In this document: positions 13,887 to 57,337 of the stretch, one piece after another | How positions within the stretch are numbered: position 1 is the stretch's first letter | How the letters are laid out: each line of letters starts with the position of its first letter | NCBI GenBank assembly: GCA_963727775.1 | Contig: CAVSHB010000001.1 | Span: 704,001-768,000 of the forward strand | Reading direction: 5' to 3' | Length of the DNA stretch: 64,000 nt | Source: an uncultured Nitrospiraceae bacterium | GTDB lineage: Bacteria > Nitrospirota > Thermodesulfovibrionia > Thermodesulfovibrionales > SM23-35 | Program-made: the position numbers and the translations under genes | Notes under the pieces: generated by a model | Told to the model about the DNA's origin: nothing | The model's input: only the letters and a program-made list of their open reading frames with translations | The model's database searches: none

Positions 13887-15422
<1,536 letters not shown>

Positions 15423-15476
15423 ATTACGTTAGAGGGTAGCGCTACGCACTTTTTTAGCTTTTAGCAGAGAAAGCAG

Positions 15477-15553
15477 GGGCCTATAGCTCAGCTGGCTAGA
15501 GCGCACCCCTGATAAGGGTGAGGTCATTGGTTCGACTCCAATTAGGCCCACCA
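15477..15553 (+). tRNA. tRNA-Ile (GAT)
   Basis: GGGCCTATAGCTCAG...CTGATAA...AGGCCCACCA in the rRNA spacer. Confidence 0.97.
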
Positions 15554-15576
15554 TCCAATGCAGATTTTTTTTGCGA

Positions 15577-15652
15577 GGGGGTGTAGCTCAGTTGGGAGAG
15601 CGCCTGCTTTGCAAGCAGGAGGTCATCGGTTCGATCCCGTTCACCTCCACCA
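15577..15652 (+). tRNA. tRNA-Ala (TGC)
   Basis: GGGGGTGTAGCTCAG...TTTGCAA...CTCCACCA in the rRNA spacer. Confidence 0.97.
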
Positions 15653-15761
15653 AGGAAGTTCCGAGTTCAATGTTCAATAATCGAAGTTGATAATGGACGT
15701 TAACACGCGGACGTTGAAGTGGAAGTTTTTAGTTCTTTGACAACAGAAGGGAATAAGTAAG

Positions 15762-18790
<3,029 letters not shown>

Positions 18791-18871
18791 TTATTTAATT
18801 TCCCTCCTGTTGTCAAAGAGATGTTGAAATGATTGCTCTTTAAATGGTAAAATGTAAAATCGGAAATTAAA

Positions 18872-18992
18872 GTTTCCGGTGGCAATGCCGAGGGGGAAAC
18901 ACCCGTTCCCATACCGAACACGGAAGTTAAGCCCCTCAGGGCCGATGATACTATGATTGCTAAGGTTATGGGAAAGTAGGTCGCTGCCGGAT
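18872..18992 (+). rRNA. rrf: 5S rRNA
   Basis: CACCCGTTCCCATACCGAACACGGAAGTTAAG, GGGAAAGTAGG. Confidence 0.97.
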
Positions 18993-41039: not shown

Positions 41040-41143
41040 GTTTCCGAAAAGGTAAACTCTGGGTAACCAGGGGGCACAAAGCCAGTGGATCCTTTCTTGG
41101 TCCTGAGTGGGAGGGAGAAGGATAGCCAGGCTGCCGAAGAAAC
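41040..41143 (+). ncRNA. c-di-GMP-I (GEMM-I) riboswitch
   Basis: GGTAAAC-stem-GGCACAAAGCC...GATAGCC..GCTGCCGAA; G at the position-20 equivalent favours c-di-GMP over 3',3'-cGAMP. Confidence 0.88.
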
Positions 41144-41211: not shown

Positions 41212-41256
41212 GCTTTTTTGTTTTCAAAAAGATTATGTGATAACCGGAGGTGGAAC

Positions 41257-42666
41257 ATGAAAAACAGTGATCTATTTGCAGAGGTTACAGATACAGGTAA
41301 TGAGGTAGGATTGCTTCCCTGTGATACCATAGACGTTACCTTTGCGTCGGAGATTGTACTTGCGGATGAGCTTGAAGACCAGATGGATCTTCTGCAGGAC
41401 CTCGGTATTGACGAAGAGGAAATTGAAGAACACGATGTCCTTGAGGAGCCGCTCATAGAAGATAAGAGGGAAGGAAGACAGGAAAAAACAGGAGACCTTG
41501 TCCAGACATATTTTTGCTCGATTAAAGATACTTCAGTTCTTACAAAAGGTGAAGAAACAGCGCTTGCAAAGAGACTGGAAAAAGGTAGACGGGTCATTAA
41601 AGGAATAATTACAAACATGCCTTTATACAAAAAAGTGGAATCTGCTTTAGACGTGCAGGAAGAAGAGAAAGATGAAAAAGCCGATAAGGCACTGGATCTG
41701 AGTTTGAAGGCACTTGAAGACCTCATGGATAAAATAGAGTCAACGGCAAAAAGCGCTGAGGGATACGGAGAAACAAACGGCGCCGGCAGATCAGCTGATG
41801 AAAAGAAAAATGGTAATGGTGTGGTACGGCATATAAGCATAAAAAAAGAGATTGAAGAGAAACGCAGACGAGTCGAAACAGAAATTGGCATGAAGATAGA
41901 GGATTTCAAGTATCTGTGGAGCAGGATTCGGAGAGAGACAGCTGTTATCGCGGACGCCCGGAATGAACTGATAACCCGGAATCTCAGGCTGGTAATTCAT
42001 ATGGCTAAACACTATCTCGGGAAAGGACTCCCTTTGCTCGACCTTATTCAGGAAGGTAATATAGGCCTTATGAAGGCCGTCGACAGATTCAAACATGAAA
42101 AGGGCTGCAAGTTCAGCACATACGCAAAGTGGTGGATCAAACAGGCGATAGCAAGGGCCGTCATAAACCAGGCTAAAACCATCAGAGTTCCCATTCATGT
42201 TATGGATTATTACCGGACCCTTACCCAAACATCCAGGGAATTAACCCAGCGGCTTGGAAGGGAGCCTGAGTATGAGGAAATTGCTCAGGAGTTAGGGATA
42301 ACCTCAAAAAAGGTTGAAGAACATTTTAAAGTCATGCAAAAGACCATATCACTTCAAAACGGGATAGGAGATGAAGATTCAAAGCTCGAAGATTTTATTG
42401 AGGACCGGAGCACACCTACACCCGAAGCCTGTTTTGAAGAAAAAGAAATAAGTGAAAAGATCTCCAAAATATTAAAAACTCTTACAAGGAGAGAAGAGAA
42501 AATAATAAGGATGAGATTCGGTATCGGAGTAAAGAAGGACTACACACTTGAAGAAATAGGGAAGCAGTTTTTTATCACACGCGAGGGGGTCAGGCAGTTA
42601 GAGGTAAAAGCACTGAGGAGACTCAGGCATCCGAGCAGGCAAATGGTGTTCAAGGCTTTGACTTAG
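41257..42666 (+). CDS. RpoD-like sigma70-family sigma factor, divergent paralog
   Basis: [51 protein letters not shown]. Confidence 0.92.
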
Positions 42667-44229: not shown

Positions 44230-44255
44230 AGCCGCTCGAAACTGCGGCTCTATTA

Positions 44256-44741
44256 TTAATAAAATCTGTTTCTGAAAACAGCGCCGTATATTTTTGATTT
44301 TCCAAGACTGATTACGGCCAGGGTATAATTGACGGTTTTCCAAAGGCCTGATCGCATATTTATAAACCTTATTCTGTCTCCTGTAATTTTCTTTTCAATC
44401 ACGCAAACCTTTCCGATAATATTATGTTCTGATACGGGCTCGTCCATGCTCAGGAGGGCGTCGCCTTTTGTTTGAAAGATATGGATATTACTATTAAATC
44501 GTTTTCCGACAATCCTGTGTATTAAAGGCAAGCCGTCATGGGTTTTGAAGAATATCAGGTCTCCTGTCCGCAAAGAACAGGAAGGGACTTTTTGTATGAT
44601 CAGTATTTCTCCTCCCCGCAGGAAAGGGGACATGCTTCTGCCTGTTGCCTTAACGCGGAGACTAAGCCCGCTGTTCAGTATATCTTCAAAAAGCTTAAAT
44701 TCCCGAGGCGCTGATATTTCCGGTTCCAAGATGAAATCCAT
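44256..44741 (-). CDS. S26/S24-like signal-peptidase-family protein
   Basis: GRSMSPFL (catalytic Ser), LIHRIV, TKGD. Confidence 0.85.
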   Translation of the reverse strand: MDFILEPEISAPREFKLFEDILNSGLSLRVKATGRSMSPFLRGGEILIIQKVPSCSLRTGDLIFFKTHDGLPLIHRIVGKRFNSNIHIFQTKGDALLSMDEPVSEHNIIGKVCVIEKKITGDRIRFINMRSGLWKTVNYTLAVISLGKSKIYGAVFRNRFY

Positions 44742-44745
44742 TTTT

Positions 44746-45651
44746 CTATCCTGTAATAAATTTTTCGAATAAATCCGCTATTCCGGTATCAGGCTTAAAA
44801 TACAGTTCATATGCAGGAATTCCGGAAGTCAGGTTTTCACACACAACGAGAATATTAGTCATTATTTCCCTGTCATACCATGGTATGGATACAACAGGCA
44901 ATAATTTTTCCAGTGCTTTCTGAGTGCTGATTTCGGATATCCTGTTATAATCACCGTGTGATATGAAAAAAATGCCCGCAAGCGGGACGTTTTTATTGAT
45001 CGCTATTTTTCCTTCTCCCGGCCACGGCGTCCCGAATGCTTTAAAAGCAGTGTCTGTTTTTCTGACGGCAATACGGTCGTCACTGAGAATCTCCAAATAT
45101 TGTAAGGCAGCGAATTGTTTTGACAGAGTGCTTTTGCCTGCCCCCGACTTCCCGGGAAATATATATCCTTTTCCATATACGTTAGCGCCGGCGGCATGGA
45201 CCAGAGCGCCATCTCTGTGAGCTAAAAAATACATAAGTATAATCTGATCAAGAGGATAACAAAAAGGGCTCGAAACCTCAGTATTGTGATTTGTCTTTTT
45301 GATAAGTCTTTCGCCGCAATAAACAGTGATGTCGGTAAAGTTATGATTGGCTCTCGCTAAAAAAAGTGGGTTATTTTCAGCCCCTGTTTGTCTGAACTCG
45401 ATATAATAACCATTGTCATTACGGTACATTGACCATGACTCGCTGCTGTCGAATTCTTTTGAGAGACTGCCGGTCTGAGGGAGATTTCCTAATTCAAGGT
45501 TGATTTTTATATCTGCCGAGAATGTTAGGGGGTCTTTAATGGTTTTTAAAAATGCCTTGTAAGATGGATCATGATAAGGAAGAATAATTGCATCTGTACA
45601 GCGAACGGCAATATTGATGTCGGCAATTTCAAGGTTCATCAAATTTGCCAT
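44746..45651 (-). CDS. HPr-kinase-like P-loop protein
   Basis: VHAAG, Walker A GKSGAGKST, LSDDR, FGTPWPG. Confidence 0.85.
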   Translation of the reverse strand: MANLMNLEIADINIAVRCTDAIILPYHDPSYKAFLKTIKDPLTFSADIKINLELGNLPQTGSLSKEFDSSESWSMYRNDNGYYIEFRQTGAENNPLFLARANHNFTDITVYCGERLIKKTNHNTEVSSPFCYPLDQIILMYFLAHRDGALVHAAGANVYGKGYIFPGKSGAGKSTLSKQFAALQYLEILSDDRIAVRKTDTAFKAFGTPWPGEGKIAINKNVPLAGIFFISHGDYNRISEISTQKALEKLLPVVSIPWYDREIMTNILVVCENLTSGIPAYELYFKPDTGIADLFEKFITG

Positions 45652-45683
45652 CTGGTGTTTTTGTCAGAAAAACGGCCGGTCTG

Positions 45684-45860
45684 TCAAGACCCTTTTTTTG
45701 ATGAACAAACTCCCGTCAGACATCCATTACCGGCAACGTTCGGATCGGAAAACTTTGTTTTACAGCCCACAGCCAGTACTTCTTCCGCAGCCAGTTCTAT
45801 TGCCCTCAGCTTCGGTTTTTCATAGACCTGCGTGCCTTTTTTGTCTTTTTCCTGCTGCAT
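45684..45860 (-). CDS. Putative RiPP precursor peptide, 58 aa
   Basis: AAGGAG RBS; MQQEKDKKGTQVYEKPKLRAIELAAEEVLAVGCKTKFSDPNVAGNGCLTGVCSSKKGS with YxxPxL leader motif and three Cys. Confidence 0.85.
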   Translation of the reverse strand: MQQEKDKKGTQVYEKPKLRAIELAAEEVLAVGCKTKFSDPNVAGNGCLTGVCSSKKGS

Positions 45861-45870
45861 TCTTAACTCC

Positions 45871-46953
45871 TTATACAACGCCTTTATTGATGAGTTGTAA
45901 CCTGCAACGGCCCATAGAGCAGAGATATTCAGAATAAATATCTTCCGCGCCGTTTTCCCATTTGAAAAAAGCCGGGCAAAAACCACATATGTGGTAACTT
46001 TCACATTTATTGCAACCGGCTATGTTGTCCGTTTTCCTGTCTCTTATGCCTGATATGATACCATACCAGCCTGATTCGAAACTACCCGATGAAAGGTTGT
46101 GTTGTATAAAATTTGTCATAATGCATGGCTGAAGATTGCCGTATGGGTCGATGTGGAATCCGGTGAGCCCCGCTCCGCAGTTGTAAAGCTTATTGTTCGG
46201 TAATTTCTCTTGAGACCTTTGGAAATACTTTACCCATTGCTGTGCTCTTTCAGCATCCAAAAATTCCTTTTCTATGGCCTCCGCTGCTGAAACTCTCAAA
46301 CTAATTGGAGATTTATCGCCGTTTATGCGCGGGAATATTGCAGCGTCAAAACGGAATTTTACGCCGAAGTTTTTTGCTATACCTTCGATATCGAAAAATT
46401 CGTGCCGGTTAAAGGTCATGAGGATAGTTTTCAATCCCACGGGTATTTTTCGTTCCACGAGCTTTGTGATGGCGTTTAAGCATTTTTCATAAGAACCGGG
46501 CACGCCTGTGATTTTTTCGTATGTAGAGGCAGTTGCTCCGTAAAGACTAATCTCAACGAGCTGGGGGGGCATATCCTCAAAAAGTTCAAGTATCCCGTCG
46601 GTGATCAAAGTCCCGTTTGTAAAAACAGTGATAACAAGGCCGCGTTTTTTTGCGTGGCTGTAAATCTCCGGGAAATCCTTCCTCAACAAAGGTTCGCCGC
46701 CTGTGATCAGGAGATAGAGGCATCCAGCTTCGGTAATTTCATCAATGAGGTCCAATATGCGGCCGGCGCTCATCTCATTGTGGTAGTTTATATGGCGCTC
46801 AGAATTGCCGGAAAGATAACAGTGCACACACCTGAGGTTACAGCGGTGGGTCAGATCGATGCTGCCGGAAATAGGTATGCGCAGGCGTTCTGTCTTCTCA
46901 TTAAACGCCCGGATGAAGTCCAGATCACTTTTCCATTTTTCTTCGCATTGCAT
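45871..46953 (-). CDS. Radical SAM/SPASM peptide maturase-like protein
   Basis: CNLRCVHC, TGGEPLLR, TNGT; SPASM cysteines CGAG...PC...CNKC...CGFC...C. Confidence 0.93.
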   Translation of the reverse strand: MQCEEKWKSDLDFIRAFNEKTERLRIPISGSIDLTHRCNLRCVHCYLSGNSERHINYHNEMSAGRILDLIDEITEAGCLYLLITGGEPLLRKDFPEIYSHAKKRGLVITVFTNGTLITDGILELFEDMPPQLVEISLYGATASTYEKITGVPGSYEKCLNAITKLVERKIPVGLKTILMTFNRHEFFDIEGIAKNFGVKFRFDAAIFPRINGDKSPISLRVSAAEAIEKEFLDAERAQQWVKYFQRSQEKLPNNKLYNCGAGLTGFHIDPYGNLQPCIMTNFIQHNLSSGSFESGWYGIISGIRDRKTDNIAGCNKCESYHICGFCPAFFKWENGAEDIYSEYLCSMGRCRLQLINKGVV

Positions 46954-46957
46954 TCAG

Positions 46958-47248
46958 TTACTCTCTGATTAACTCTGCTTCCAGAAGCTCGGCAATAAAT
47001 TCGCTGATATCGGCGTCTGCCCTTTCTTTTTCAACATCAAACTGTGCAAGTATCCCTTTGCGTATTTCATTAAGGCTTTGCTTATCGATCTGCTGCCATA
47101 CATATTCGGCAACAGGATTTAGAGTGAATATCCTTTGCATGTCGGCTACCTTCCCCCTAATCGGAACAAGGAAAAGCTCGCCTGCAATCTTGCGTGTGAC
47201 GATATCTTCATTGCGTCTATAAATCTTCTCTCCTATGTTGTCGCTCAT
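46958..47248 (-). CDS. PqqD-family RiPP recognition element
   Basis: RKIAGELFLVP, FTLNPVAEYVW, FDV...DISEFIAEL. Confidence 0.92.
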   Translation of the reverse strand: MSDNIGEKIYRRNEDIVTRKIAGELFLVPIRGKVADMQRIFTLNPVAEYVWQQIDKQSLNEIRKGILAQFDVEKERADADISEFIAELLEAELIRE

Positions 47249-47256
47249 ATCTTCAT

Positions 47257-50200
47257 CTACCTCAGTTTCAAAGCAGGGTCGCCGAGGAGGTTATAGATAT
47301 CCATCATGAAGTCCTGGCCGCCTGCTTTGTTAAAGCCGTTAAGCGCCTTAAGGATAACGTCGCCGAGCACCGCTTTTTTGGCTTTGAACCCCGCCTTGAA
47401 GAACTCTTCATCGAGTATCAGGGCCTCTGAGTCGAATGACATCCCCGTGGGAGACCAGACAGCCGCCGCCCCGCCGCCGTTTTGCAGCACCAGCACTTCG
47501 CTCAGTGAGTTATAACCCGGTATGCCATACTCTCCCACAACACACGTCATGGCCGCCATTACAGGCAGTTTCGTGCTGTTGGTCATGTGGAAAACAACAT
47601 CGTCTTCTGTGAGAACGGGTTGCATGGCAAGGTGGTCTACCCCTCCGTGCCCTATGTAGTTTAAGAACACGATCCCCTTATTATTTATCCAGTCCATGAG
47701 CGTGTCGTGAGCTGTACCGACAGGCTGCCCGGCCAGGTAGATTGTCTCTGCGCTGTAGCTTTTAGTTAATAGAGCTAACACAGCATTGCTGTCCTTCGTG
47801 AAAGCCCCCGCGTCATCGGGCACATCGGCCAGCATGATGACCTTATTGCCGGTAGCGCCCTCGTATACGGCGATCTTGTTGATTACATTTGTCAGGTCCG
47901 AGGCTGTCAGCACAGGCAGCCTGCCTATGGCGATCCTCGGGACATGATCGTTTTCCACCTCTGCAAAGAGGTTGTCCGAAGGATAAACTCCAGATGGTGT
48001 GGAGGTCATAAGCGTCGGGATCAGGTTATCATTCTTGCCAAGGTTGTTTTTGTAGTCAAATGTGCCGTTGCCTGCGAGAACTACGTAACCGGGCGCTTTT
48101 TTCCAGCTATGATAGGCGTAGCTGAGAAAGTCTCTGATCGCCTCCGGACTGTATATGCCGTAATTGAATTCATTGAGGATCTCTTCAAGCAATACGGTTT
48201 GAACGGTAAGCCCCTGGTTGCTCCGGTAGGCGGCCAGTGTATTTGCCGCGTCACTGAGCTCGGCCGTGGTAATGATGATATAGTCTGCCTTGTTTTTATT
48301 GTCTTTGAGCCAGGGAACTGTGCCAGCCCTGACATTTGCCGTCGGAATAGGAATAACAGCGTCCTGCTTTAAGGCCAGATAAACGGCACCAGACGATGCG
48401 GGATTGAAGCTTAGGGCATAACCGCCGCCTGTAGAGGTTATCTTCGCGGCTGTTACGTTCCTGGGGTTCAGAGGGTCTGTGATATCGAAAAGCGATAAGT
48501 CAGGTCCTGTGAACCCGGTAATGGTCACCACCGGGTTTGTATTGTCGTGGCAGACCAGACTGTTGTTTGTGGCATGGTAAAGCCTCTGGTATGTCAGGTC
48601 GAATGAGTTTAAATAGAAGATGCTGTAATCCGTGTCCGGATTATCCAGCAAGCCTGTGATTTCAACTGTATTGCTGCCTTCATAAAGCTGGCCGGGACTG
48701 TAATTAATGGTGATTGTTTTGGGGTTCGGGCCGTACCATACTTTATCTGCTGTATCGGCTATCTGTGTGCCGTTGAGTTTGAATGAAGCATGGTGTTTGG
48801 TATTGGTGAACCCCTGCAGGTTTATACTCAGGCTGCCTGAGGCATTGGCCACACCGTTTGCCTGGATTGTGAAGGTCTTGACGCCATCGTCAGGGTCTCC
48901 GGCTACAATATAGTCCCAGAACCAGTAGTCTGATTCAGGGTCAGTGGTTATGACCGGCACTATGATGTTGTCCTGCTCCACATGGATAGTCTCTGTAAAG
49001 GTGTTATTTCCGGCAACGGGCTGGGGTCCTTTGCCTTTTACATTGACCATCTGAACTCCGTTACCCACGGCTAACCAGTAGATGTTTTCGTCTGTATAGT
49101 TATCATTGCTTATGCCTGTGCCGTAAAACAGTATGCCTGCGTTTCCGGCGTCGGGCATATAGGCTGCTTTTTGGTCTTTGTTCGTCAGCTGCAATCCATT
49201 GTTTTTTATCAGCTGTATTATTTTTTGCTCTGATATCCCCAATAGTGTTGCTATGGTCGAGGACGACAGAGAATAAAGACCATTTGTGCTTACGGGTATC
49301 TTTATCGATGTCCCGGTCTGTATCGAAGCGCTTCCGGTGCTTGCCGCTAAAGCTCTTATATGCACTGCCTGGGTTGCTTTGGGGACTGTGTTCTCTTTGG
49401 CCTTCCTTACATAGTTGGAATAAAGGTCCTGACCTGAATCGACGGTTGTTTTGTACGGGTCGTTACGGACGCTTATGTTGGAACTTCCGTCTGAGGCAAA
49501 AGACCTGACTACTGTGTTTGTAGATACCTTCGGAGGATTAAGCAATAGCTCGGGGTTTATCGCATTTGACCTGCCAAGGTTATTGATAGCGGTACCTGTT
49601 GTGCTAACAGTGAACGGTCCGTGTATGTTCTTTGCGCCGCCGGCTTCTACTTCCATGAGTAAGTAGGTGTAGCTTTGCTCCGGAGATGCCCCCTTGTCGA
49701 TAAGGCTGTAGGTGCCTCCCTGTAACGATGTAAGCAATGCAGGCAAAAGCCTCCGGTTTATGCGCTGGTACCCTCCGGTTGAGGCGTCCTTCCTGAATAG
49801 ATAAAACCCTGCCGTGCCTGACTCTGAGGAGGTTGTCCATTCGATTACCATGCTGCCGTTGTCTTCGTATGCGCGGAAATCAGATAGTACTACATGAGTC
49901 GGAGAGATGCTTGTACAACTCGTATTGTTATTGGAGTTGGAATCAGCTGGTGTGGATGAAGCCAGATTCGCGCAGTTTTGTATGGTCGTTTCCGTCTGCT
50001 GCACAATTGTTGTAAGGGTCAGGGTAACGGAACTCCCCCCCGTGATTGATGATGCTACTGTCCATGTGAGTGTGCCGCCGCCGGTGCTGTTGCAGCCGGA
50101 ACATGTAGCTGTGCCGGCGGTCGCTGTGTATGAGCTATATGCCAGGTTAGCAGGCAATGCGTCTGTAACCTGCGCCGCAGTGACAGTGGTTGTCCCGACA

Positions 50201-53200
50201 TTCTTTAAGGTGATAAGAAAGACAGCATGGCATGTGCCATCTGCATAACAAGGGGCGTCAATGCTCTGCACCGCCTTTGTTACCTGAAGATCGGTCGGAT
50301 AGGTAACAGGATTGCCTACAGATGCTTTAGTTGTGGCCGACTGGGCACTCGATACCGCCGCTTCGTTAAATATCTGAGTGACACCCGATGGCAATGAACT
50401 ATTAACCTGTACTTGGTAGGTTACTGTCATCGATTCGCCCGGGTTTAGAGAAAAGCCGTCAGCAGGCATTAACAGGTTAGGGGATACTCCGTTTGTAAGA
50501 GGGTTCGGATCTCCAACTCTGTTGGTCTTAGTGTCGTATCTAACTGTAAGTCGTTCGTCATTTGCCGAGGACCGGCTGTTTATGGCGGCTGTCTGATTAG
50601 CACCAGCTGTTCCTATAAGTATCACGCCGTGGTTATTGGCAGGGGTAGTTACCCAATTCTGAACGCTAGTAAGAAGATTGGCGGTATTTATCCCACGATA
50701 ACCGACAGGGCTTACAATGAACGACCCAAGAAGAGTAGGACTGTAATCTCCTCCTCCAGTGGTCCAGGTATTCGCACAGTTGTACTGATTCCAGGTTGCG
50801 CCATTACCGGTTCCTGCGCTGCAGACAGCACCAGGGTTTCTTGTGCCTTCATTCCAGTCACGGGTCAGGCCATATGCGTTGGCCGTAAGGTTTGCGTTGG
50901 CAGTTGAAACGTTAAATTCCATCAATGCGGACCCAACCCTTGCCGTAGAAAGAATGGATGATAGATCGAACTGCACGAGCGGCTGCCTCATCCTGCCGGC
51001 TCTGTACTGAATACTCATCGGTTCCACGCTGCCATAATTGTATGTCGGGTTCTGCTGATCGAGATATGTGTCTTTTACAGCATATAAGATAACTGACGAA
51101 ATTGTATTATTTGAGGGCGCGCCTTTGACAACGGTGCTGTTGTTTACATATGTCGTATAGGTCGGCAGCAAGTCGTAAACGGTTATGCCTGTCTGTGTTG
51201 TTGTGGCGCTATTATTGGTAATCGTGATGGTATAGGTTATAGTGTCTCCCGGGGCCACGTTGCCTGTACCTGCACTGCTGACTTTTGTCACCACCAAGTT
51301 AGAAACAGCAGCGGCGGCAAACCCGAAGTTGTTATTTGGATAAGTCGCATTCAATTGGGTGACAGACACCGTCTTTTGATCGCCCGGGGCAAGGGGCCAG
51401 TCATCGGTGGTCGTCAGCGTCTTGGAGATGAGTGGAGACTGAGTGTCGTCGATGCTCACAAAATACTTTCCGATTGAGGACACCTGGAAACTGTAATATC
51501 CGCCGGAGTCGGTGGTAGTGGTTGCGACAAGTGTATCCGTAGACGGATCGAAGATGTTATTACTGTTTGTATCACTGTACAGCTGAACCGTGACGCCGGA
51601 AATGCCGGCTTCTCCGGTATCCTGGCTTTTGTTGCTGTTCAGGTCGTTCCAGACAAGCCCGGTTATGGCCGATGTGCCCGGCGCGTTATAGCCGAAATCG
51701 GCGGTGAGGTCGCTTGTATTTAGATTGAGGAAAAGGACCGTTCTCTGGGCACCGGCAACCGAAGGCTGGTCGTCATTTGTTGTCAATACCAATCCGCTGA
51801 GAGGTGTCTGGCCATCGTCAATGCTCACAAAAAACCTTCCCTCTTCCGATACCTGAAACATATATTTGCCGTCTGCATCAGTGGTAGTGGTTGCAACAAG
51901 CTGGTCCGTTCCCGTATCGAGCAGTCCGTTCCCATTTGTATCTTTGTAAAGTTTAACGGTCACTCCCGCGATGCCCGGTTCCCCGATCTCCTGGATGCCG
52001 TTCCTGTTATAATCACTCCAAATCGTGTCGCCGATTTTACCCGGAGCGTTGTACCCGAAATTTGTACCGGAAACATTTGCGTTTAATACAGTCACCGCAA
52101 GATTACCCGCTTGCGCGGCAGTGGTAGTGCCGGCAAATCCGATCAGCTTTCCGTTGGCATCCTCAATGCTGATCGTGTAAGATCCGTTCGGGACGCCGGT
52201 GAAAGAGAAATTTCCGTATACATCGCTGGTAGTTACCGCCGCTACTACGTTGCCGGCTTTAAGAAGTGTAATCGTAACGCCTTTAATTCCCGGCTCACCC
52301 GGATCGAGCGCTGCGTTGTCATTTAAATCGAACCATACACGGTCGCTGATTGTATAAAGAGATGGGTTATAGTAACCGAAATCCATCATAACATAGCTGT
52401 TCCCGCCTGTTACGGTTATGGGGGCGCTGTTATTGGCGCCTATGCTCTGCGGTCCGACGGTCGGTGAATATCCTGACAATATTCCGGCGGTATCCGACTT
52501 AACCACATATGTTCCGGGAGAGACATTCGTAAAGAGATATATCCCGAAGGCATTGGTAGTCGCCCAAGCAACATGAACATTGCCGGGAGAGGTCACCAGT
52601 TCCATGGTAACGCCTCCAAGCCCCAATTCGCCCGGTTCCTGGATTCCGTTGTTATTTGCGTCGCTCCAGACGTAGTCGCCTATTATGGCTACATTTGATC
52701 CGGCATTCTTATAGCCAAAGTCGTTATTGAGAAACTGCTCCTGTCCGGTAATCACTATTGGGGAAGTTGGGTTATTGTTCGTGGAGATCGTTAACCCCGG
52801 AGGGAGCGTAGTCTCATCTACATAGACCCTGTATGTTCCCGGGAGGAGGCCGTCAAAGACATATTTCCCGTCTGTACCCGTGCGGGTCTCGAGATCCCCG
52901 GCATCAAAGACCCCGTTATTGTTGGTATCAAGCCACACTCTGACATTATAGAGGCCGGGCTCTCCGGTGTCATGGACCCCGTTAGGGACCGTGTCCAGCC
53001 AGACAAGATCTCCGATAGCACCGCCTGTACTCACCGGATCAATCGTTGTTGAGGAGGCAGGAGGAGCTTTTTCGTAACTCGTTGCGGTCGCCGTGTTCAC
53101 GATCCGTGTCTCATTTATAGGATTCTTGGCCTGGACGGTGTATGTTATCGTCATCGTTTCACCGGCAGCTAGGGCAAAGCCGTCGGCAGGCATGACGAGA

Positions 53201-55881
53201 TTTGGTGGAACTCCGTTTATCAGGTCAGGATTGCTCCCGCCGGTAATGTTATCTTTGGTTACAGTAACGGGCAGCTCATTTGTTTTTATCGCGACATTAT
53301 CTGCGTAGAAGTAATCGCCGGCATAGCCGTTAGAAACACTGAAACGCACAGTCGTATCCGATCCGATATAAGATGAGATATCATAGCTTTTTGTGCCCGT
53401 AGTCTGTCCGGTAATGTTATTGATAGTATCAATGACTGTGAGGCCGTGCCCGTTCCCGGACATTATTACCTGCACTGCATCTGCGGCAGCAACACTCGGA
53501 CTTGTGCGAAAGTCGAAACTTAATGTTGCGGACGTAAAATTCTGGGCCGGTATCCCTGTTGTCAGGTTTGCAGTTCTGGATGCCCATGATCCGGCGGCTG
53601 TCAGACGCAGCGAACCATTGATTACCTGGACATTCCCCGTCAATGGGTCCTGTGGGTTTCCGGCCGCGTCATTCTCACTCCAGTTTGCAGCCCAATTTTC
53701 CGGACCGTCATTATTGCTGTATAAAAGCTGATTAAATTTTTCCTTGACGAGTTTCTGCCTGTGACCTGTGACAGAAGTGCTGCTTGCAATGTAGTTCGTG
53801 CCGTCAGGTAACGGATCGTTTAACTGAATTCCTGTTTGAGATGTACTTGAAGCATTTGTTACGGTGATAGTGTAAGTAATATTGTCGCCGGGTTTTACTT
53901 TGTTCGGGGCTATACTTGAGGTCTTAAGAGTTTGAAGGACCCCCTGCTGGACAACGGAGTCGCGCGTATTAAGAAAAATCTCTGCCACTGAAGTGACCTT
54001 CGCATTATTGATTATATCGGTAGTGGTAGTGGGGGACAATGGATTATTCACCGTTGCCTGAAAAGTAAATAGTATGTCCTGCCCTGGTTGCAATGTGGAA
54101 GGGATAGGATATCCCGTCTCGTCGAGAGGGAAACGTGTGCCCGACGCATTGTCCGATAAGGCAGAGCCGTCCATAGTGGTTGTATTGGCAACATAGGTAG
54201 TATTCGTGTCGAGCGTGTCCAGGAGGTTGATACTGGATATCGGGACTATGCCGCTGTTATGCACCCTTATTGTATATTCCAATAATTCACCGGGATCTAT
54301 TCCTCCGTTACTGTTAAAGTCTCCTATAAGTTCGGCATATTTATAAGCGACTAAGGAAGGAAACGGCAGCACGGTTGTCCCGAGATCGAGTTCTGTCGGT
54401 TGGTTTGCAGAAGAGCTTCCGCCATCCTGTCCATAGGCAACGGCAATCCTCGTATTGTCGGTTGTATAGACCCTCCAGCCTGTATGATCGTAAGAGCCTG
54501 CAGGACCCGGTGAGAATATCTTTTGAGCTTCCAATGCCTGGACATTGATTGCAACATCGCAGTGGTTGCCTAACGAGTCAAGTATCGGACCGGTTGTGGG
54601 ATCTCCGTCATAGTCCACATAAACTGTAGTGGTGGTAACAGCTGTTACCCATATCGGGTTTGCATCTCTCTGTTTATCGGTAGTTCCAGGAGACCAGCCA
54701 ACGACTGCGGAAGTCGTCAGCGATGTCTCGGGGATCATATTAAAGCCCCAATTATGGACTGTATTGTTTATGTCGATTGCGGCAATCGCATAGAAGCTTT
54801 CACCACCTGTGGTGGTAAGCTTGGCGCCTGTTAAGTTACCTGGCGATGTCGGTGATAAGGGCAATTGAAAGAATCCGGCAGTATGAGCTAAGAGGGTTTG
54901 AGATACGGGACATCCGGCGGTACCTGCCATGCAGGTGACATTCACAGTGATTGAGGCGCTGTTTGGGTTGTAGGCGATTATGTTGTTATATACCATGGTG
55001 CCGCCTGTCTCCCTGGTCGTCGAAACCGGACTGTAGTAAGTGTTTCCCAAATTAGAAATAGGAAGCAAGCTATATAGTCTGCCATCGTATCCTGACGGCG
55101 ATTGTGCAGTTAACATATCGACTTGGACAGGACCGCCTGTAGATGTGACGGTGGCCCCCACTTTTATTCCTTCGACATAGAAGGTCTGGCCCTCATTCAA
55201 CGTCTGTGTGACATTGACGGAAAGGTCCCTGTTTTGCACAGTCACACTTGTGCCGTTCTTCTGCGCCGAAATAGAAAGCGCAGTATAATTGAAAGAGACC
55301 GAACCGTTATTAATTCCAACGGGCACTTCGAAATTGCTTCCCCATTTGTTCGTTTCGAATACCTCAACCGCTCCGGCCATCTGCGCGCCTATTGTCTGTG
55401 GCGCTCCATTCGGCCAGAAAGCACGGGTGACGACGATCTGCTGGGTCGCGCTTATCTTGTCCATGCCGTCATGATATAAGTTGCCCTGGTCACGAATTCC
55501 ATTTGCAACCGGAATATCGTCTGCGAAGGTGATGACCTGACCGGCATTAATGGTAATGACCTGTGTTGTGCTTTGTTGAGGGTTTGTTATGTCATCTTCG
55601 TAGCCATCTTCCCAGTGGTCATAGTAGATGGTTGTGCCGTCATATGTGCCGGTGATCGAGATAACGGAATGTATAGTGTCGGCTTCAGCTGTTGCAGTCT
55701 GCGCCCTCATCCATGTCCTGGCCTGGGGTTCGGTGATAGGGACATAAAACGTCTGGACAATTTGATTGGCTGCTTTAGCGTCGTGCGTACCGTAGAACGC
55801 AAAGATTATCAATGCCGCGACGGCGAAAAGTATTACGCGAAGGTTGATGCCAGGTGAGACATACTGGTCCATCTTTTTCAT
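47257..55881 (-). CDS. Giant secreted multidomain protein: DUF11 repeats, five SdrD-B-like repeats, DNRLRE-like domain, C-terminal peptidase C25 domain
   Basis: GGGAGG RBS and signal peptide; PGDxITYTIT repeats; IGDxVWxD...GEPG repeats; DTYLDQQNPTYNYG; DYIII, AIGRLPV, YIGHG, MTC, NLLGDP. Confidence 0.9.
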   Translation of the reverse strand: MKKMDQYVSPGINLRVILFAVAALIIFAFYGTHDAKAANQIVQTFYVPITEPQARTWMRAQTATAEADTIHSVISITGTYDGTTIYYDHWEDGYEDDITNPQQSTTQVITINAGQVITFADDIPVANGIRDQGNLYHDGMDKISATQQIVVTRAFWPNGAPQTIGAQMAGAVEVFETNKWGSNFEVPVGINNGSVSFNYTALSISAQKNGTSVTVQNRDLSVNVTQTLNEGQTFYVEGIKVGATVTSTGGPVQVDMLTAQSPSGYDGRLYSLLPISNLGNTYYSPVSTTRETGGTMVYNNIIAYNPNSASITVNVTCMAGTAGCPVSQTLLAHTAGFFQLPLSPTSPGNLTGAKLTTTGGESFYAIAAIDINNTVHNWGFNMIPETSLTTSAVVGWSPGTTDKQRDANPIWVTAVTTTTVYVDYDGDPTTGPILDSLGNHCDVAINVQALEAQKIFSPGPAGSYDHTGWRVYTTDNTRIAVAYGQDGGSSSANQPTELDLGTTVLPFPSLVAYKYAELIGDFNSNGGIDPGELLEYTIRVHNSGIVPISSINLLDTLDTNTTYVANTTTMDGSALSDNASGTRFPLDETGYPIPSTLQPGQDILFTFQATVNNPLSPTTTTDIINNAKVTSVAEIFLNTRDSVVQQGVLQTLKTSSIAPNKVKPGDNITYTITVTNASSTSQTGIQLNDPLPDGTNYIASSTSVTGHRQKLVKEKFNQLLYSNNDGPENWAANWSENDAAGNPQDPLTGNVQVINGSLRLTAAGSWASRTANLTTGIPAQNFTSATLSFDFRTSPSVAAADAVQVIMSGNGHGLTVIDTINNITGQTTGTKSYDISSYIGSDTTVRFSVSNGYAGDYFYADNVAIKTNELPVTVTKDNITGGSNPDLINGVPPNLVMPADGFALAAGETMTITYTVQAKNPINETRIVNTATATSYEKAPPASSTTIDPVSTGGAIGDLVWLDTVPNGVHDTGEPGLYNVRVWLDTNNNGVFDAGDLETRTGTDGKYVFDGLLPGTYRVYVDETTLPPGLTISTNNNPTSPIVITGQEQFLNNDFGYKNAGSNVAIIGDYVWSDANNNGIQEPGELGLGGVTMELVTSPGNVHVAWATTNAFGIYLFTNVSPGTYVVKSDTAGILSGYSPTVGPQSIGANNSAPITVTGGNSYVMMDFGYYNPSLYTISDRVWFDLNDNAALDPGEPGIKGVTITLLKAGNVVAAVTTSDVYGNFSFTGVPNGSYTISIEDANGKLIGFAGTTTAAQAGNLAVTVLNANVSGTNFGYNAPGKIGDTIWSDYNRNGIQEIGEPGIAGVTVKLYKDTNGNGLLDTGTDQLVATTTTDADGKYMFQVSEEGRFFVSIDDGQTPLSGLVLTTNDDQPSVAGAQRTVLFLNLNTSDLTADFGYNAPGTSAITGLVWNDLNSNKSQDTGEAGISGVTVQLYSDTNSNNIFDPSTDTLVATTTTDSGGYYSFQVSSIGKYFVSIDDTQSPLISKTLTTTDDWPLAPGDQKTVSVTQLNATYPNNNFGFAAAAVSNLVVTKVSSAGTGNVAPGDTITYTITITNNSATTTQTGITVYDLLPTYTTYVNNSTVVKGAPSNNTISSVILYAVKDTYLDQQNPTYNYGSVEPMSIQYRAGRMRQPLVQFDLSSILSTARVGSALMEFNVSTANANLTANAYGLTRDWNEGTRNPGAVCSAGTGNGATWNQYNCANTWTTGGGDYSPTLLGSFIVSPVGYRGINTANLLTSVQNWVTTPANNHGVILIGTAGANQTAAINSRSSANDERLTVRYDTKTNRVGDPNPLTNGVSPNLLMPADGFSLNPGESMTVTYQVQVNSSLPSGVTQIFNEAAVSSAQSATTKASVGNPVTYPTDLQVTKAVQSIDAPCYADGTCHAVFLITLKNVGTTTVTAAQVTDALPANLAYSSYTATAGTATCSGCNSTGGGTLTWTVASSITGGSSVTLTLTTIVQQTETTIQNCANLASSTPADSNSNNNTSCTSISPTHVVLSDFRAYEDNGSMVIEWTTSSESGTAGFYLFRKDASTGGYQRINRRLLPALLTSLQGGTYSLIDKGASPEQSYTYLLMEVEAGGAKNIHGPFTVSTTGTAINNLGRSNAINPELLLNPPKVSTNTVVRSFASDGSSNISVRNDPYKTTVDSGQDLYSNYVRKAKENTVPKATQAVHIRALAASTGSASIQTGTSIKIPVSTNGLYSLSSSTIATLLGISEQKIIQLIKNNGLQLTNKDQKAAYMPDAGNAGILFYGTGISNDNYTDENIYWLAVGNGVQMVNVKGKGPQPVAGNNTFTETIHVEQDNIIVPVITTDPESDYWFWDYIVAGDPDDGVKTFTIQANGVANASGSLSINLQGFTNTKHHASFKLNGTQIADTADKVWYGPNPKTITINYSPGQLYEGSNTVEITGLLDNPDTDYSIFYLNSFDLTYQRLYHATNNSLVCHDNTNPVVTITGFTGPDLSLFDITDPLNPRNVTAAKITSTGGGYALSFNPASSGAVYLALKQDAVIPIPTANVRAGTVPWLKDNKNKADYIIITTAELSDAANTLAAYRSNQGLTVQTVLLEEILNEFNYGIYSPEAIRDFLSYAYHSWKKAPGYVVLAGNGTFDYKNNLGKNDNLIPTLMTSTPSGVYPSDNLFAEVENDHVPRIAIGRLPVLTASDLTNVINKIAVYEGATGNKVIMLADVPDDAGAFTKDSNAVLALLTKSYSAETIYLAGQPVGTAHDTLMDWINNKGIVFLNYIGHGGVDHLAMQPVLTEDDVVFHMTNSTKLPVMAAMTCVVGEYGIPGYNSLSEVLVLQNGGGAAAVWSPTGMSFDSEALILDEEFFKAGFKAKKAVLGDVILKALNGFNKAGGQDFMMDIYNLLGDPALKLR

Positions 55882-56067
55882 TTTATCCTCCCAATTAGAG
55901 GGCAAGGAATTATGCGCATGTTAATAGGCCATGATGAGTGCATGGTCATTTCGATTATCAATTTGTTCTGCATAAAATTCTCCCTTCTTTCATCATAATC
56001 GGATGAAAGATATTTATATATTATATTCTAAATAATTTAGATTATAATTTCTATACATTAATATATA

Positions 56068-56082
56068 GCAATTATTATGCCC
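56068..56082 (-). promoter_or_regulatory. sigma54 (-24/-12) promoter of the giant-protein operon
   Basis: Minus strand GGGCAT-AATAA-TTGC. Confidence 0.7.
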
Positions 56083-56177
56083 CATATCTTATTGGGATTA
56101 CGCCGAATGTTTGTATTTTTCTTGTCTGTTGAGGTAAGTAAGTTCAATTTTTATTGTAAATCTTAAAAACATATTTA

Positions 56178-56190
56178 AATCAATTAGTTG
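56178..56190. promoter_or_regulatory. IHF-binding site
   Basis: AATCAATTAGTTG matches WATCAANNNNTTR. Confidence 0.65.
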
Positions 56191-56299
56191 CGAACAAAAA
56201 ACAGATGTTCGAATCCTGTTGCCTTCACTAATCCGTAGAATTGACGATTTTATTATTAGGTCCCGCTACAATAAGTCTGCTAATTTTTGTGACTTCTTT

Positions 56300-56336
56300 T
56301 GTTACGCAGATTACATATTTTGTTACTTGTTTTACA
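56300..56336. promoter_or_regulatory. Tandem enhancer-binding-protein sites (TGT-N10-ACA x2)
   Basis: TGTTACGCAGATTACA and TGTTACTTGTTTTACA, starts 21 bp apart. Confidence 0.6.
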
Positions 56337-56443
56337 TATTTTGTTGTCGGTTTTCAAATAAAAAAGAAAATCCTTTAATCTTTTATAAAGCAAAAAACCG
56401 GGAAACTTTTTTGATATACTGTAAAAGGAGAATAAGAGAAAGA

Positions 56444-57337
56444 ATGAAAAAATATTCCACCAGATTTTTATCGGTAGTCTTTATCCTATTTTTCCTATGC
56501 ATGTCTGTTTTTCTTCGGGATGTTTCTGCGGACAAAAAAAACTTCTTATGGAAGGTCCGGTCTGAGACAGGCACTGTTTATATTCTGGGTTCCATCCACT
56601 TCATGAAAAAGGAGATTTACCCGCTAGACAAAAAAATCGAGGACGCTTTTGATAAATCCGACATCCTGTCTGTTGAAGCTGATGTCAATGATATAAGCCG
56701 GATTGACCTTCAGAAATTAATGGAATCCTCTCTCTACGCAGGCGATGATACCCTCGCAAATCATGTCTCCGGAGAGACCTATAGACTTGTAAAAAAAGAA
56801 GTTGAAAGAAACGGTATTCCTGTCTGGATTGTCGATAAGCAGAGACCGTGGATTCTGGCTTTGACATTGACGTCACTGGAACTTGCAAAGTTGGGGTTTG
56901 AGCCTGACTATGGGATAGACATTCATTTCCTGTCAAAGGCTTCAGGTAAAAAGAAGATCAAAGAACTCGAGAGCGTTGATTACCAGATAAATCTCCTGTC
57001 GGGGTTTTCCGACAAAGAACAGGAAGCGTTTTTGTTATATACGTTGAAGGACTTAAACTTGATCGAGAAAGAAGTTGACACTGCTCTCCGCGCATGGACG
57101 ACCGGGGACGTAAAAGGGATGGAGTCTATAATGGGAAGTCTTCAGGACGACCGGGGAATGTCTTCGATATATGAAAAACTCATCTATGAAAGAAACAAGA
57201 ATATGGCGGCAAAAATTGAAGGCTATCTCAAAACAAAGGAAAGCTATTTTGTCGTGGTGGGAGCAGGCCATGTCGTTGGAGAAAAGGGGATTGTCGAGAT
57301 CCTCAGAAGAAAGGGATATCGTGTCGCGCAATTGTAA
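56444..57337 (+). CDS. TraB/GumN family protein
   Basis: FLWKV, YILGSIH, GID, ELES, RNKNM, VVGAGH; signal peptide from MKKYS. Confidence 0.92.
   Translation: MKKYSTRFLSVVFILFFLCMSVFLRDVSADKKNFLWKVRSETGTVYILGSIHFMKKEIYPLDKKIEDAFDKSDILSVEADVNDISRIDLQKLMESSLYAGDDTLANHVSGETYRLVKKEVERNGIPVWIVDKQRPWILALTLTSLELAKLGFEPDYGIDIHFLSKASGKKKIKELESVDYQINLLSGFSDKEQEAFLLYTLKDLNLIEKEVDTALRAWTTGDVKGMESIMGSLQDDRGMSSIYEKLIYERNKNMAAKIEGYLKTKESYFVVVGAGHVVGEKGIVEILRRKGYRVAQL

Follow-up and report, generated by a model that had tools for sequence, protein, structure and literature searches.

A radical SAM peptide cassette with a core like that of linear polyphosphorylated peptides, encoded in one operon with a giant protein bearing a PorU-like module

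Introduction

In the genome of an uncultured Nitrospiraceae bacterium, the gene for a giant exported protein stands at the head of an operon whose other five genes resemble a pathway for a ribosomally synthesised and post-translationally modified peptide (RiPP). The operon lies within a stretch of 64,000 nucleotides (GenBank assembly GCA_963727775.1, contig CAVSHB010000001.1, positions 704,001 to 768,000 of the forward strand) that was analysed as a whole and is referred to here as the window; its coordinates are counted from its first letter. The locus raises the questions of what kind of peptide the cassette makes, and whether that peptide has anything to do with the giant protein. Our data indicate that the system is a RiPP cassette with a recognition, kinase and peptidase core like that of the linear polyphosphorylated peptide (LPP) pathway, together with a radical SAM (rSAM) enzyme and a link to a C25 peptidase module. 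We consider it probable that the operon makes a recognition-element-bound, Cys-modified, Ser-phosphorylated and leader-cleaved peptide that works with the PorU-like module of the giant protein.

Results

A six-gene operon

The operon spans positions 44256 to 55905 on the minus strand and consists of six co-directional open reading frames (ORFs), listed from the first gene to the last:

47257-55905, minus strand: gene for the giant exported protein; the TTG at 55905 gives the longest ORF (2882 aa), the ATG at 55881 a protein of 2874 aa
46958-47248, minus strand: discrete PqqD-family protein, predicted RiPP recognition element (RRE), 96 aa (PF05402, 3.1e-15)
45871-46953, minus strand: radical SAM enzyme with a SPASM-type C-terminal half, 360 aa (Radical_SAM, 7.7e-26)
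45684-45860, minus strand: precursor peptide, 58 aa, with motifs conserved in homologues
44746-45651, minus strand: HPr-kinase-like P-loop protein, predicted peptide serine kinase, 301 aa
44256-44741, minus strand: SipW/archaeal-type S26 peptidase, predicted leader peptidase, 161 aa (TIGR02228)

The gaps between these genes, computed from the ORF coordinates, are 8, 4, 10, 32 and 4 nt, and AAGGAG is found 6 nt before the ATG of the precursor peptide. A first-pass annotation, made from the letters and their ORFs, had described six co-directional genes with gaps of 4-32 nt, and this description was confirmed. Its assignments of the products (a 2874-aa secreted protein, a PqqD/RRE protein, an rSAM-SPASM enzyme, a 58-aa peptide, an HPr-kinase-like protein and an S26-like peptidase) were matched by domain scans and motifs. 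It had also described the locus as being without a lasso cyclase, a B2 protease and an ABC exporter, and none of the three was found among the 16 flanking proteins scanned (24.5-63.7 kb), the cyclase and the B2 protease not having been searched for genome-wide.

Distribution of the cassette and its link to the C25 module

Relatives of the rSAM enzyme are numerous. The protein collection contained 3591 at E ≤ 1e-20, the best 120 of which were 56-91% identical, and a scan of one genome per species yielded at least 634 rSAM pattern matches, at least 606 of them confirmed by tblastn. The loci of the best 80 relatives were analysed; their ORFs were called mechanically and were searched with the window proteins and then with profiles built from the first matches. 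A single rSAM gene like that of the window was found in 51 of these loci (L006-L055 and L057), while 29 were more distant, mostly multi-rSAM loci of the SynChlorMet type. Co-occurrence was counted in those single-rSAM loci, 39 in number, whose flanks reach at least 1.5 kb upstream and at least 3 kb downstream. The HprK-like kinase was found in 38 of them, PqqD in 38, the precursor in 36, the S26 peptidase in 32 and the C25 module in 19. The six-gene arrangement is far beyond chance, because all six families were present together in 13 of these loci. The usual gene order is that of the window (C25 protein, PqqD, rSAM enzyme, precursor, kinase, S26 peptidase). Relatives occur in Nitrospirota, Chloroflexota, Planctomycetota, Verrucomicrobiota, Actinomycetota, Acidobacteriota, Omnitrophota and other phyla; the closest, by the rSAM tree and by local synteny, are Nitrospirota.

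The link to the C25 module follows the rSAM tree. A clade with an SH-aLRT support of 98 contained 21 rows, 17 of which are C25-linked, including the window. It spans about nine phyla (Nitrospirota, Chloroflexota, Planctomycetota, Verrucomicrobiota, Kiritimatiellota, Actinomycetota, Acidobacteriota, Aminicenantes and Thermodesulfobacteriota), and the module adjoins the cassette in 16 of 19 loci. The four unlinked rows are L006, which is without upstream flank, and L012, L022 and L023, which have flank and are without the module. The label of C25 linkage required 7 changes on the tree compared to a mean of 15.3 after shuffling, a value that was equalled in 0 of 500 shuffles. In four Anaerolineae loci, placed elsewhere in the tree, the module has moved downstream of the kinase.

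A phyletic profile was made from 251 genomes of the phylum of the window; these relatives are not independent, hence no test statistic is given. The module was matched at E ≤ 1e-30 in 18 genomes, the kinase at E ≤ 1e-10 in 35, and both in 9. All eight genomes with a module match at E ≤ 1e-230 also had a kinase match at E ≤ 1e-68. In seven of these eight, the genome of the window included, kinase and module share a contig and are 1.57-1.79 kb apart; in the remaining one (G267) the two are on different contigs, with the module at a contig end. Another genome, G230, has a strong kinase match 1.8 kb from a contig end and no module match.

Taken together, the cassette and the PorU-like module are co-inherited across phyla. 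The first-pass annotation had tied the cassette to the C25 protein. The conserved neighbourhood, with the module beside homologous cassettes in 19 of 39 loci, the rSAM clade and the phyletic profile all support that tie, but it is not universal, as about half of the related cassettes go with a PF14907 nucleotidyltransferase (NTase) and polysaccharide genes instead. Loci without C25 mostly carry this NTase, along with genes for ABC-2 transporters, Wza, Wzz/GNVR, Wzy_C and glycosyltransferases. In the 24 loci with at least 8 kb upstream and at least 6 kb downstream, the C25 module alone was found in 11, the NTase alone in 6, both in 2 and neither in 5. The C25 module and the NTase/polysaccharide genes thus largely alternate as partners of the cassette, and some C25-linked loci also adjoin Wzz, Wza or Wzy_C-TPR genes. 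The genome of the window has a single PF14907 gene (L095, 9453-10613, plus strand; at about 581.5 kb of contig C1). It ends a polysaccharide locus that lies about 167 kb away from the cassette and in which heparinase II/III-like, GT1, UDP-GlcNAc 2-epimerase, DegT, Bac_transf and Polysacc_synt_2 genes were found.

Several fused proteins were seen among the related loci. In three Omnitrophota loci (L017, 3892-5973; L027, 12138-13748; L028, 3845-6070) an S24/S26 domain is fused to a PF14907 nucleotidyltransferase; the L017 and L028 proteins (693 and 741 aa) also contain a GNAT acetyltransferase domain, and the L027 protein has 536 aa. The multi-rSAM loci L056, L059, L060, L068, L069, L081 and L085 encode proteins of 650-690 aa that match both the rSAM and the HprK-like profiles and are apparent rSAM-kinase fusions.

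The precursor peptide

The 58-aa precursor begins with a Lys-rich N-terminus and continues with the leader motif Y13-x-K-P16-x-L, the sequence EEVLAVG-C33-K34, a variable stretch, C47, C52 and a C-terminal G-S58. It had no match in the Pfam and NCBIfam profile scans. The consensus of 31 aligned precursors reads (P)Y-x-K-P-x-[LIV], ..L..EE.L..G-C-K, 8-20 variable residues with many Gly, Pro, Ser and Thr among them, then C-x3-7-C, and finally a short tail that ends in Ser. In this alignment Y13, P16 and C33 are invariant, L23, K34, C47 and C52 are at least 90% conserved, and the C-terminal Ser is present in 31 of 31 sequences.

A profile of the precursors, searched against 1.84 billion cluster representatives (50% identity), gave 2109 matches at E ≤ 0.001, of which 179 were at E ≤ 1e-10. 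Motifs were counted in the best 150 of the 2109 matches minus one unrelated 1823-aa repeat protein (n = 149), a set that is biased towards the consensus. YxxP was present in all 149, exactly three Cys after YxxP in 146, and [GASTN]CK in 142; the last residue was Ser in 145 and Thr in 4, and the end 'GS' occurred in 134. Judged by this conservation, the precursor ORF is plainly a real, conserved gene, and the earlier reading of the locus as a RiPP-type cassette with a precursor stands.

The sequence LAVG-C was considered as a lipobox and was rejected. The residues upstream of it are charged (IELAAEE), and there is no hydrophobic signal segment.

Two further observations concern the precursor family. 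The 1823-aa protein set aside above (P0146) contains eight repeats, PYKSPEIEGISL, that resemble the region of the leader motif (profile positions 11-27); they may be a chance likeness, or the protein may mimic an RRE-binding motif. In L015 (Aminicenantes), two precursor genes (5420-5602 and 13089-13271) and two C25 genes surround one enzyme set, and the second precursor comes directly after the second C25 gene.

The modification enzymes

The closest matches of the PqqD protein in a sequence search of the PDB were PqqD and TbiB1, and its weak matches to the NCBIfam profiles of ScmD, lasso B1 and GeoRSP PqqD were all under the cut-off. The rSAM enzyme has the CX3CX2C motif (C38, C42, C45) and seven C-terminal cysteines (C259, C277, C314, C317, C323, C326 and C345), all invariant in 20 sequences. 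It thereby shows the combination found in rSAM/SPASM peptide maturases. The C-terminal half is called SPASM-type because of the seven invariant Cys, an arrangement that we take to be the SPASM pattern, and because of full-length alignment to rSAM/SPASM families of NCBIfam.

The S26 enzyme passes the profile of archaeal-type signal peptidase I (TIGR02228) with 57.8 bits compared to a cut-off of 51.85. Its catalytic residues are conserved as S36 (40/40 aligned sequences), H75 (40/40) and D94 (38/40). No membrane segment was predicted in a Kyte-Doolittle scan (maximum 19-residue hydropathy 1.01), so the enzyme is predicted not to have the membrane anchor of type I signal peptidases.

The kinase candidate contains a P-loop (G172-K173-S-T175) and has weak HprK-type matches, all below the cut-off (TIGR04355, 4.1e-07; ScmC, 5.4e-05; PF07475, 1.5e-3). 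In 65 aligned sequences H152, G172, K173 and T175 are invariant, and D191 and D192 are present in 54 and 55. The pattern H152/K173/D191/D192 fits the His-Lys-Asp-Asp motif of lasso-tailoring kinases, as given in the available part of the report on them (PMC9266682). With the catalytic residues of the rSAM enzyme, the S26 peptidase, the kinase and the C25 module all intact, the four enzymes look active.

None of the rSAM, PqqD and kinase proteins reaches the cut-off of any equivalog in NCBIfam (release 20). The equivalogs of SynChlorMet (SCM), GeoRSP, lasso B1, PqqD/PqqE, MftC, PapB, AlbA and SkfB were rejected for the cassette proteins, with scores far below cut-off. The SCM system (TIGR04248-TIGR04251), which was defined in silico, supplies the best or near-best NCBIfam neighbours of three window proteins. 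The scores against the cut-offs were 22.7/125 bits for ScmC, 29.1/100 for ScmD, 87.9/400 for ScmE and 69.9/400 for ScmF. SCM has two or three rSAM enzymes compared to one here, and the multi-rSAM loci with PqqD, an HprK-like domain and S26 have no C25 partner. The GeoRSP cut-offs (TIGR04302, TIGR04303) were likewise not reached (PqqD, 26.3/100 bits; rSAM enzyme, 72.2/400).

The giant protein and its C-terminal module

The features of the giant gene that bear on the module are as follows:

47260-49338, minus strand: PorU-like module, 693 aa, kept beside the cassette in other phyla
47258-49886, minus strand: 3' 2.6 kb of the giant gene (beta-sandwich domain, linker and PorU-like module), with 98.4% DNA identity to a paralogue on contig C4
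47647-47649, minus strand: codon of His2753 (TTG numbering; GHG motif), putative catalytic His of the C25 dyad
47542-47544, minus strand: codon of Cys2788 (TTG numbering; MTC motif), putative catalytic Cys of the C25 dyad

Domain scans of the giant protein identified Peptidase_C25 at residues 2542-2881 (2.4e-74; 251.2 bits compared to a gathering threshold of 23), five SdrD_B domains, four DUF11 domains and DNRLRE. The N-terminus has a hydrophobic signal-like segment (maximum 15-residue Kyte-Doolittle hydropathy 2.92), and a similar start (15-residue hydropathy ≥ 2.1) was found in 11 of 15 related C25 proteins scanned. By these predictions, the protein starts with a signal-like segment, continues with a passenger resembling adhesins and ends in a PorU-like C25 module. 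In related loci only the C-terminal part is conserved, as a domain of about 100 aa (residues ~1990-2095) and a module of about 690 aa (~2190-2882). The passenger parts differ, the total lengths range from 1099 to 3216 aa, and the linker that precedes the module shows poor conservation from one phylum to another. All 19 aligned modules keep the GH and the C of the dyad unchanged.

The first-pass annotation had called this protein gingipain-like. Our data point elsewhere: by sequence comparison and a predicted structure, the conserved module is nearer to PorU, the T9SS (type IX secretion system) sortase of Bacteroidota, than to the gingipains. The NCBIfam profile of PorU (NF033707) matched the module with 3.6e-74 and 250.1 bits, below the cut-off of 420, over profile positions 3-732 of 1095. 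The PDB sequence search gave 8.5e-12 for PorU (6za2) compared to 3.5e-4 for RgpB. An AlphaFold2 model of the 693-aa module (pLDDT 91.7, pTM 0.91) was compared with known structures by Foldseek, and the best match was latent PorU (6za2) over the whole length (796 columns, E 3.6e-32, TM 0.57); RgpB and Kgp matched the catalytic domain only. The module thus has in common with PorU the beta-sandwich domains, the C25 catalytic domain and the conserved His/Cys dyad. Unlike PorU, it stands at the C-terminus of adhesin-like proteins that are 1100-3200 aa long, leaves the C-terminal part of PorU (profile positions 733-1095) unmatched, stays under the cut-off, and occurs in phyla not known for T9SS. In the genome of the window (96.8% complete) the profiles of SprA (TIGR04189) and of the T9SS C-terminal domain (TIGR04183) gave no match, but they gave none in control genomes either. 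A complex prediction for the module and the precursor, run without controls, scored 0.01 compared to a mark of 0.32.

The same genome encodes a second giant protein of 2624 aa on contig C4 (L093, 4756-12630, plus strand). The two genes have 98.4% DNA identity over their last 2629 bp, which stops at the stop codon, and their upstream regions are 81% identical over 330 bp. The passengers are unrelated in detail, that of the C4 paralogue consisting of DUF11-like repeats. Near-identical 3' ends joined to different passengers suggest recent gene conversion or module swapping. The C4 paralogue stands between genes for a ribonucleotide reductase and an Old Yellow Enzyme (OYE)-type reductase without a cassette beside it, and the genome has one copy of the HprK-like kinase. 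Two modules and one kinase were also found in genome G003, and two tandem C25 genes precede one cassette in L026 and L057. Because these four have multiple modules with a single cassette or kinase, one cassette appears to serve, or at least accompany, several proteins with a common module.

Flanking features and neighbouring genes

The following features lie in or next to the operon:

45678-45691, minus strand: five-pair stem-loop followed by a T-run, overlapping the stop codon of the precursor (pattern match only)
44230-44249, strand unassigned: GC-rich terminator-like hairpin (pattern match) that separates the operon's end from the M48 gene converging on it
55971-56300, minus strand: AT-rich stretch upstream of the giant gene, with 81% identity to the one upstream of the C4 paralogue

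The stem-loop is a possible partial terminator between the precursor and the downstream enzyme genes, where it could tune the ratio of precursor to enzyme transcript. The region upstream of the giant gene had no Rfam match at E ≤ 1.

The operon is flanked by plus-strand genes, those for a sigma-70 factor and an M48 peptidase converging on one side and a TraB/PrgY-family gene diverging on the other. The latter (56219-57337, plus strand; TraB/PrgY/GumN family) is followed by NYN and PAP2 genes. The M48 (Ste24-like), TraB/PrgY and PAP2 neighbours were rejected as parts of the system, as they recur only in L007, L009 and L013, three Nitrospirota loci that are close relatives, so that plain synteny accounts for them. 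Because PrgY-type proteins have a link to the control of peptide pheromones, the TraB/PrgY/GumN-family neighbour might still have a role in the system.

The sigma-70-family gene (41218-42666, 482 aa) lies two genes from the end of the operon and is preceded, 80 nt upstream, by a cyclic di-GMP-I riboswitch aptamer (41041-41138, plus strand; 58 bits compared to a gathering threshold of 35). This riboswitch was not found in the syntenic loci L007, L008, L009 and L013. A complete rRNA operon (16S, two spacer tRNAs, 23S and 5S) is located at 13887-18992 on the plus strand. In L007, L009 and L013 the rRNA operon lies a few kb past the cassette; in the window about 25 kb separate the two, an interval that holds two transposase genes (31244-32875, DDE_Tnp_1; 39585-40874, Mutator family).

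Discussion

The reading that we favour, and that we hold to be probable, assigns the cassette proteins to successive steps. The PqqD protein would bind the YxKPxL leader, as its counterparts do for lasso peptides and LPP. The rSAM/SPASM enzyme would modify the core at the three conserved Cys; thioether cross-links are the likeliest chemistry by analogy with the SPASM enzymes of sactipeptides and ranthipeptides. The HPr-kinase-like protein would phosphorylate the invariant C-terminal Ser, in the manner of PadeK and PsmK, LppK acting on a Ser of the core. The S26 enzyme, to which the PqqD protein would present the substrate, would remove the leader as LppS does, probably between the small residue 32 and Cys33. 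The mature product may then act together with the PorU-like module. The first four steps follow from homology, motif conservation and published analogues, and the last from co-inheritance.

The nearest known system is the LPP pathway of Bacillota (LppA/K/B/S/D/N), which was characterised experimentally in 2026 (Popov et al., Nat Commun; PMC13381572). According to the available part of that report, LPP clusters encode the precursor LppA with a YxxPxVLxHQxIxFETxxS leader, the RRE LppB, the HprK-like LppK, the SipW-like LppS, an MsbA-like pump and an NTP transferase. LppK adds one to four phosphates to core Ser3. LppS (catalytic S29, H68 and D93) cleaves off the leader; LppB is required for this, and unphosphorylated precursor is poorly processed. 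The window cassette likewise encodes together a discrete PqqD-type RRE, an HprK-like kinase and a SipW/archaeal-type signal peptidase I with Ser-His-Asp, next to a precursor with a YxxPx[LIV] leader motif. The spacing from Ser to His is 39 in both peptidases (S36/H75 and S29/H68), a comparison made without direct sequence alignment. LPP clusters and the related cassettes are also alike in their frequent placement in polysaccharide loci, and a PF14907-type NTase is found in many of the relatives. The trio of PqqD, kinase and S26 therefore probably works like a known module, as far as the pathway is described in the available part of that source.

The window cassette is nevertheless not an LPP cluster. 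Its leader, which reads YEKPKLRAIELAAEEVLAVGCK, has only YxxPx[LIV] in common with the LPP motif, and neither an NTP transferase nor an MsbA-like exporter was found in the operon or in the scanned flanks, an extra rSAM/SPASM enzyme being present instead. Membership fails because the motif differs beyond YxxP, because the rSAM enzyme is present, and because the NTase and the pump are absent from the operon. LPP clusters, as described, have no radical SAM enzyme and no C25 protein, their cores are variable and not of a three-Cys type, their phosphosite is core Ser3, and they are reported to be restricted to Bacillota (PMC13381572). The window has one rSAM enzyme, a GCK...C...C...GS core and no exporter in the operon, and its relatives belong to many phyla other than Bacillota. 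The first-pass annotation had been unable to match the combination to a characterised pathway; this did not hold, as an RRE, an HprK-like kinase and a SipW-type peptidase acting on a YxxP leader are the core of LPP. Its proposal of an uncharacterised RiPP class survives in part: no NCBIfam equivalog cut-off was reached, but the LPP-type core has already been characterised.

In the main text of the LPP report the words 'radical', 'SPASM', 'C25' and 'gingipain' have 0 occurrences each. In the available part of its supplement, Peptidase_C25, Radical_SAM and DUF11 each occur a single time, heading columns in the total domain matrix; at least one of the 199 neighbourhoods of that paper may therefore be of the present kind without being discussed there. 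No publication on the rSAM-plus-kinase cassette or on its C25 link was found, in a literature search that misses most subscription journals. One candidate, PMC13635244, was rejected as a link between radical SAM, RiPP and C25, as 'c25' is a sample label there.

Two further groups of peptides bear on the comparison. According to the available part of a review on the tailoring of lasso peptides, which covers paeninodin and pseudomycoidin, the conserved Ser at the C-terminus of the precursor is the target of PadeK and PsmK. PadeK phosphorylates it, precursors encoded along with a kinase of this kind strictly conserve it, and the NTase homologue PsmN attaches hexoses to the phosphorylated Ser of pseudomycoidin (PMC9266682). 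Lasso peptides of this type have in common with the window the HprK-like kinase, the conserved C-terminal Ser (31/31 aligned precursors; 145 Ser and 4 Thr in the best 149) and the discrete RRE. The window differs in that no lasso cyclase or B2 protease was found among the flanks, and in its S26 serine leader peptidase, rSAM enzyme and three conserved Cys. The maturases of sactipeptides and ranthipeptides (AlbA, SkfB, StsB, PapB) also combine an rSAM/SPASM enzyme and an RRE on a Cys-bearing peptide, and a weak full-length similarity was seen (PapB, residues 32-335). Their scores are far below cut-off, and the RRE of the window is a separate protein. To our knowledge the Cys pattern of the precursor, with one Cys at the junction of leader and core and two near the C-terminus, matches no described RiPP class.

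A number of observations weigh against the reading set out above. For the enzymes, the Pfam SPASM model had no match to the rSAM enzyme at E ≤ 0.01, and the HprK-like kinase call rests on weak profile matches below cut-off. LppK acts on core Ser3 and not on a C-terminal Ser (PMC13381572, as available), so the phosphosite proposed here is an analogy to one of two known patterns. For the link to the giant protein, the C25 module is missing from 20 of 39 loci, and the 24 fully flanked loci include 5 that lack both C25 and the NTase. L022 and L023 lie inside the C25 clade and have no module despite about 10 kb of upstream flank. In the phylum sample, nine genomes have weaker C25 modules in proteins of 738-993 aa and no kinase, and 26 have a kinase match without the module, weak (E 5e-16 to 2e-35) except in G230. 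Precursors from C25-linked and unlinked cassettes look alike, so no feature of the peptide is tied to the protease. The 80 loci, as the best of at least 606 rSAM relatives, lean to close relatives, and the rSAM tree is a quick maximum-likelihood tree with a midpoint root. Furthermore, the S26 enzyme is without a membrane segment, the giant protein is exported and the operon has no transporter; it is therefore not obvious that the peptide and the protease share a compartment.

The giant gene and the cassette may instead have no functional tie, travelling together as a mobile block or merely sharing a promoter. This would account for the 20 loci without the module, for the second giant gene that stands alone between the two reductase genes, and for the nine genomes with a related module and no kinase. 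But the order and spacing from the end of the module to the kinase (1.57-1.79 kb) are held in seven genomes of the phylum, and the same pairing recurs in Actinomycetota, Acidobacteriota, Verrucomicrobiota, Planctomycetota, Chloroflexota and others despite differing passengers. The Anaerolineae kept the module and moved it downstream of the kinase, which pure hitch-hiking does not predict, and we regard independence as unlikely. If a tie does exist, the C25 module could be a second, extracytoplasmic protease of the peptide itself, which would trim the exported peptide, for example after Lys34, and release an active product at the cell surface. The dyad intact in 19 of 19 modules, the gingipain-fold catalytic domain, the near-invariant C33-K34 of the precursor and the conserved neighbourhood are all in line with such a role. 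It is unlikely, given that the cassette already has its own leader peptidase, that half of the related cassettes have the same GCK motif without C25, and that an adhesin-like carrier of 2874 aa is an odd vehicle for a processing enzyme. The modified peptide might also be a latency factor or inhibitor that silences the cysteine protease until export. Secreted cysteine proteases with inhibitors encoded in their operons provide a precedent, the cassette is co-inherited with an apparently active protease, and the closest solved structure is latent PorU. About half of the loci encode a peptide of this family and no C25 protein, and the giant protein would cross the membrane unfolded by Sec, so that cytoplasmic inhibition seems unnecessary; this explanation is very unlikely.

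The likeness to PorU allows a further explanation, in which the peptide is a ribosomally made linker and not a free natural product. In a sortase-type anchoring that is independent of T9SS, the module would cleave the adhesin at a site upstream of its own domain and ligate the C-terminus created in this way to an amine on the mature peptide (that of the N-terminal Cys33 or of Lys34). The phospho-Ser of the peptide would in turn be attached to polysaccharide, by the PF14907 transferase in those loci that have one; one cassette would serve several adhesins. In the available parts of the reports concerned, PorU is a transpeptidase that replaces the C-terminal domain of its cargo with A-type lipopolysaccharide (A-LPS) (PMC8545088, PMC4560394), an amide bond links the C-terminus of T9SS cargo to a sugar with a seryl or glycyl substituent (PMC7468200), and PsmN hexosylates a phosphorylated C-terminal Ser (PMC9266682). 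The better match of the module to PorU than to gingipains fits this scheme. So do the PF14907 NTase, Wza, Wzz, Wzy, ABC-2 and glycosyltransferase genes of the cassettes without C25, the Wzz/Wza/Wzy_C genes near some C25-linked ones, and the two giant proteins of one genome with different passengers, a near-identical module and a single cassette. Against it stand a PorU score below cut-off (250 compared to 420 bits), the absence of a peptide exporter from the operon, the distance of about 167 kb to the only PF14907 gene of the genome, and a linker before the module that is so poorly conserved between phyla that no cleavage motif can be named. We rate anchoring as unlikely too.

A last alternative concerns the S26 enzyme alone, which could be the dedicated signal peptidase of the giant protein, the small ORF not being its substrate. 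SipW is the signal peptidase for TasA, the enzyme matches TIGR02228 and SipW-type profiles, and it shares an operon with a Sec-type exported protein. We judge this highly unlikely. The enzyme has no membrane segment, nor do most of the listed relatives exceed a 19-residue hydropathy of 1.6; it stays with the cassette in loci without any C25 protein; and LppS, its homologue, removes the leader of a RiPP with assistance from the RRE (PMC13381572, as available).

Taken as a RiPP system whose modified peptide works with the PorU-like module, the locus contributes a complete copy of the cassette, the observation of a paralogous giant protein, and a phylum-level profile. The cassette would join radical SAM modification of Cys with HprK-type phosphorylation of Ser and a SipW-type leader peptidase, which have not yet been seen together. 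If the reading holds, the family would be among the largest unstudied RiPP families, with 2109 precursor representatives and at least 606 rSAM relatives among species genomes. The pairing with a PorU-like adhesin module, or with NTase and polysaccharide-export genes, suggests a role in the assembly of the cell surface or matrix rather than in antibiosis. If this is true, a function could be assigned to PorU-type enzymes in phyla other than Bacteroidota, and there may be a lead to the role of LPP and paeninodin-type peptides.

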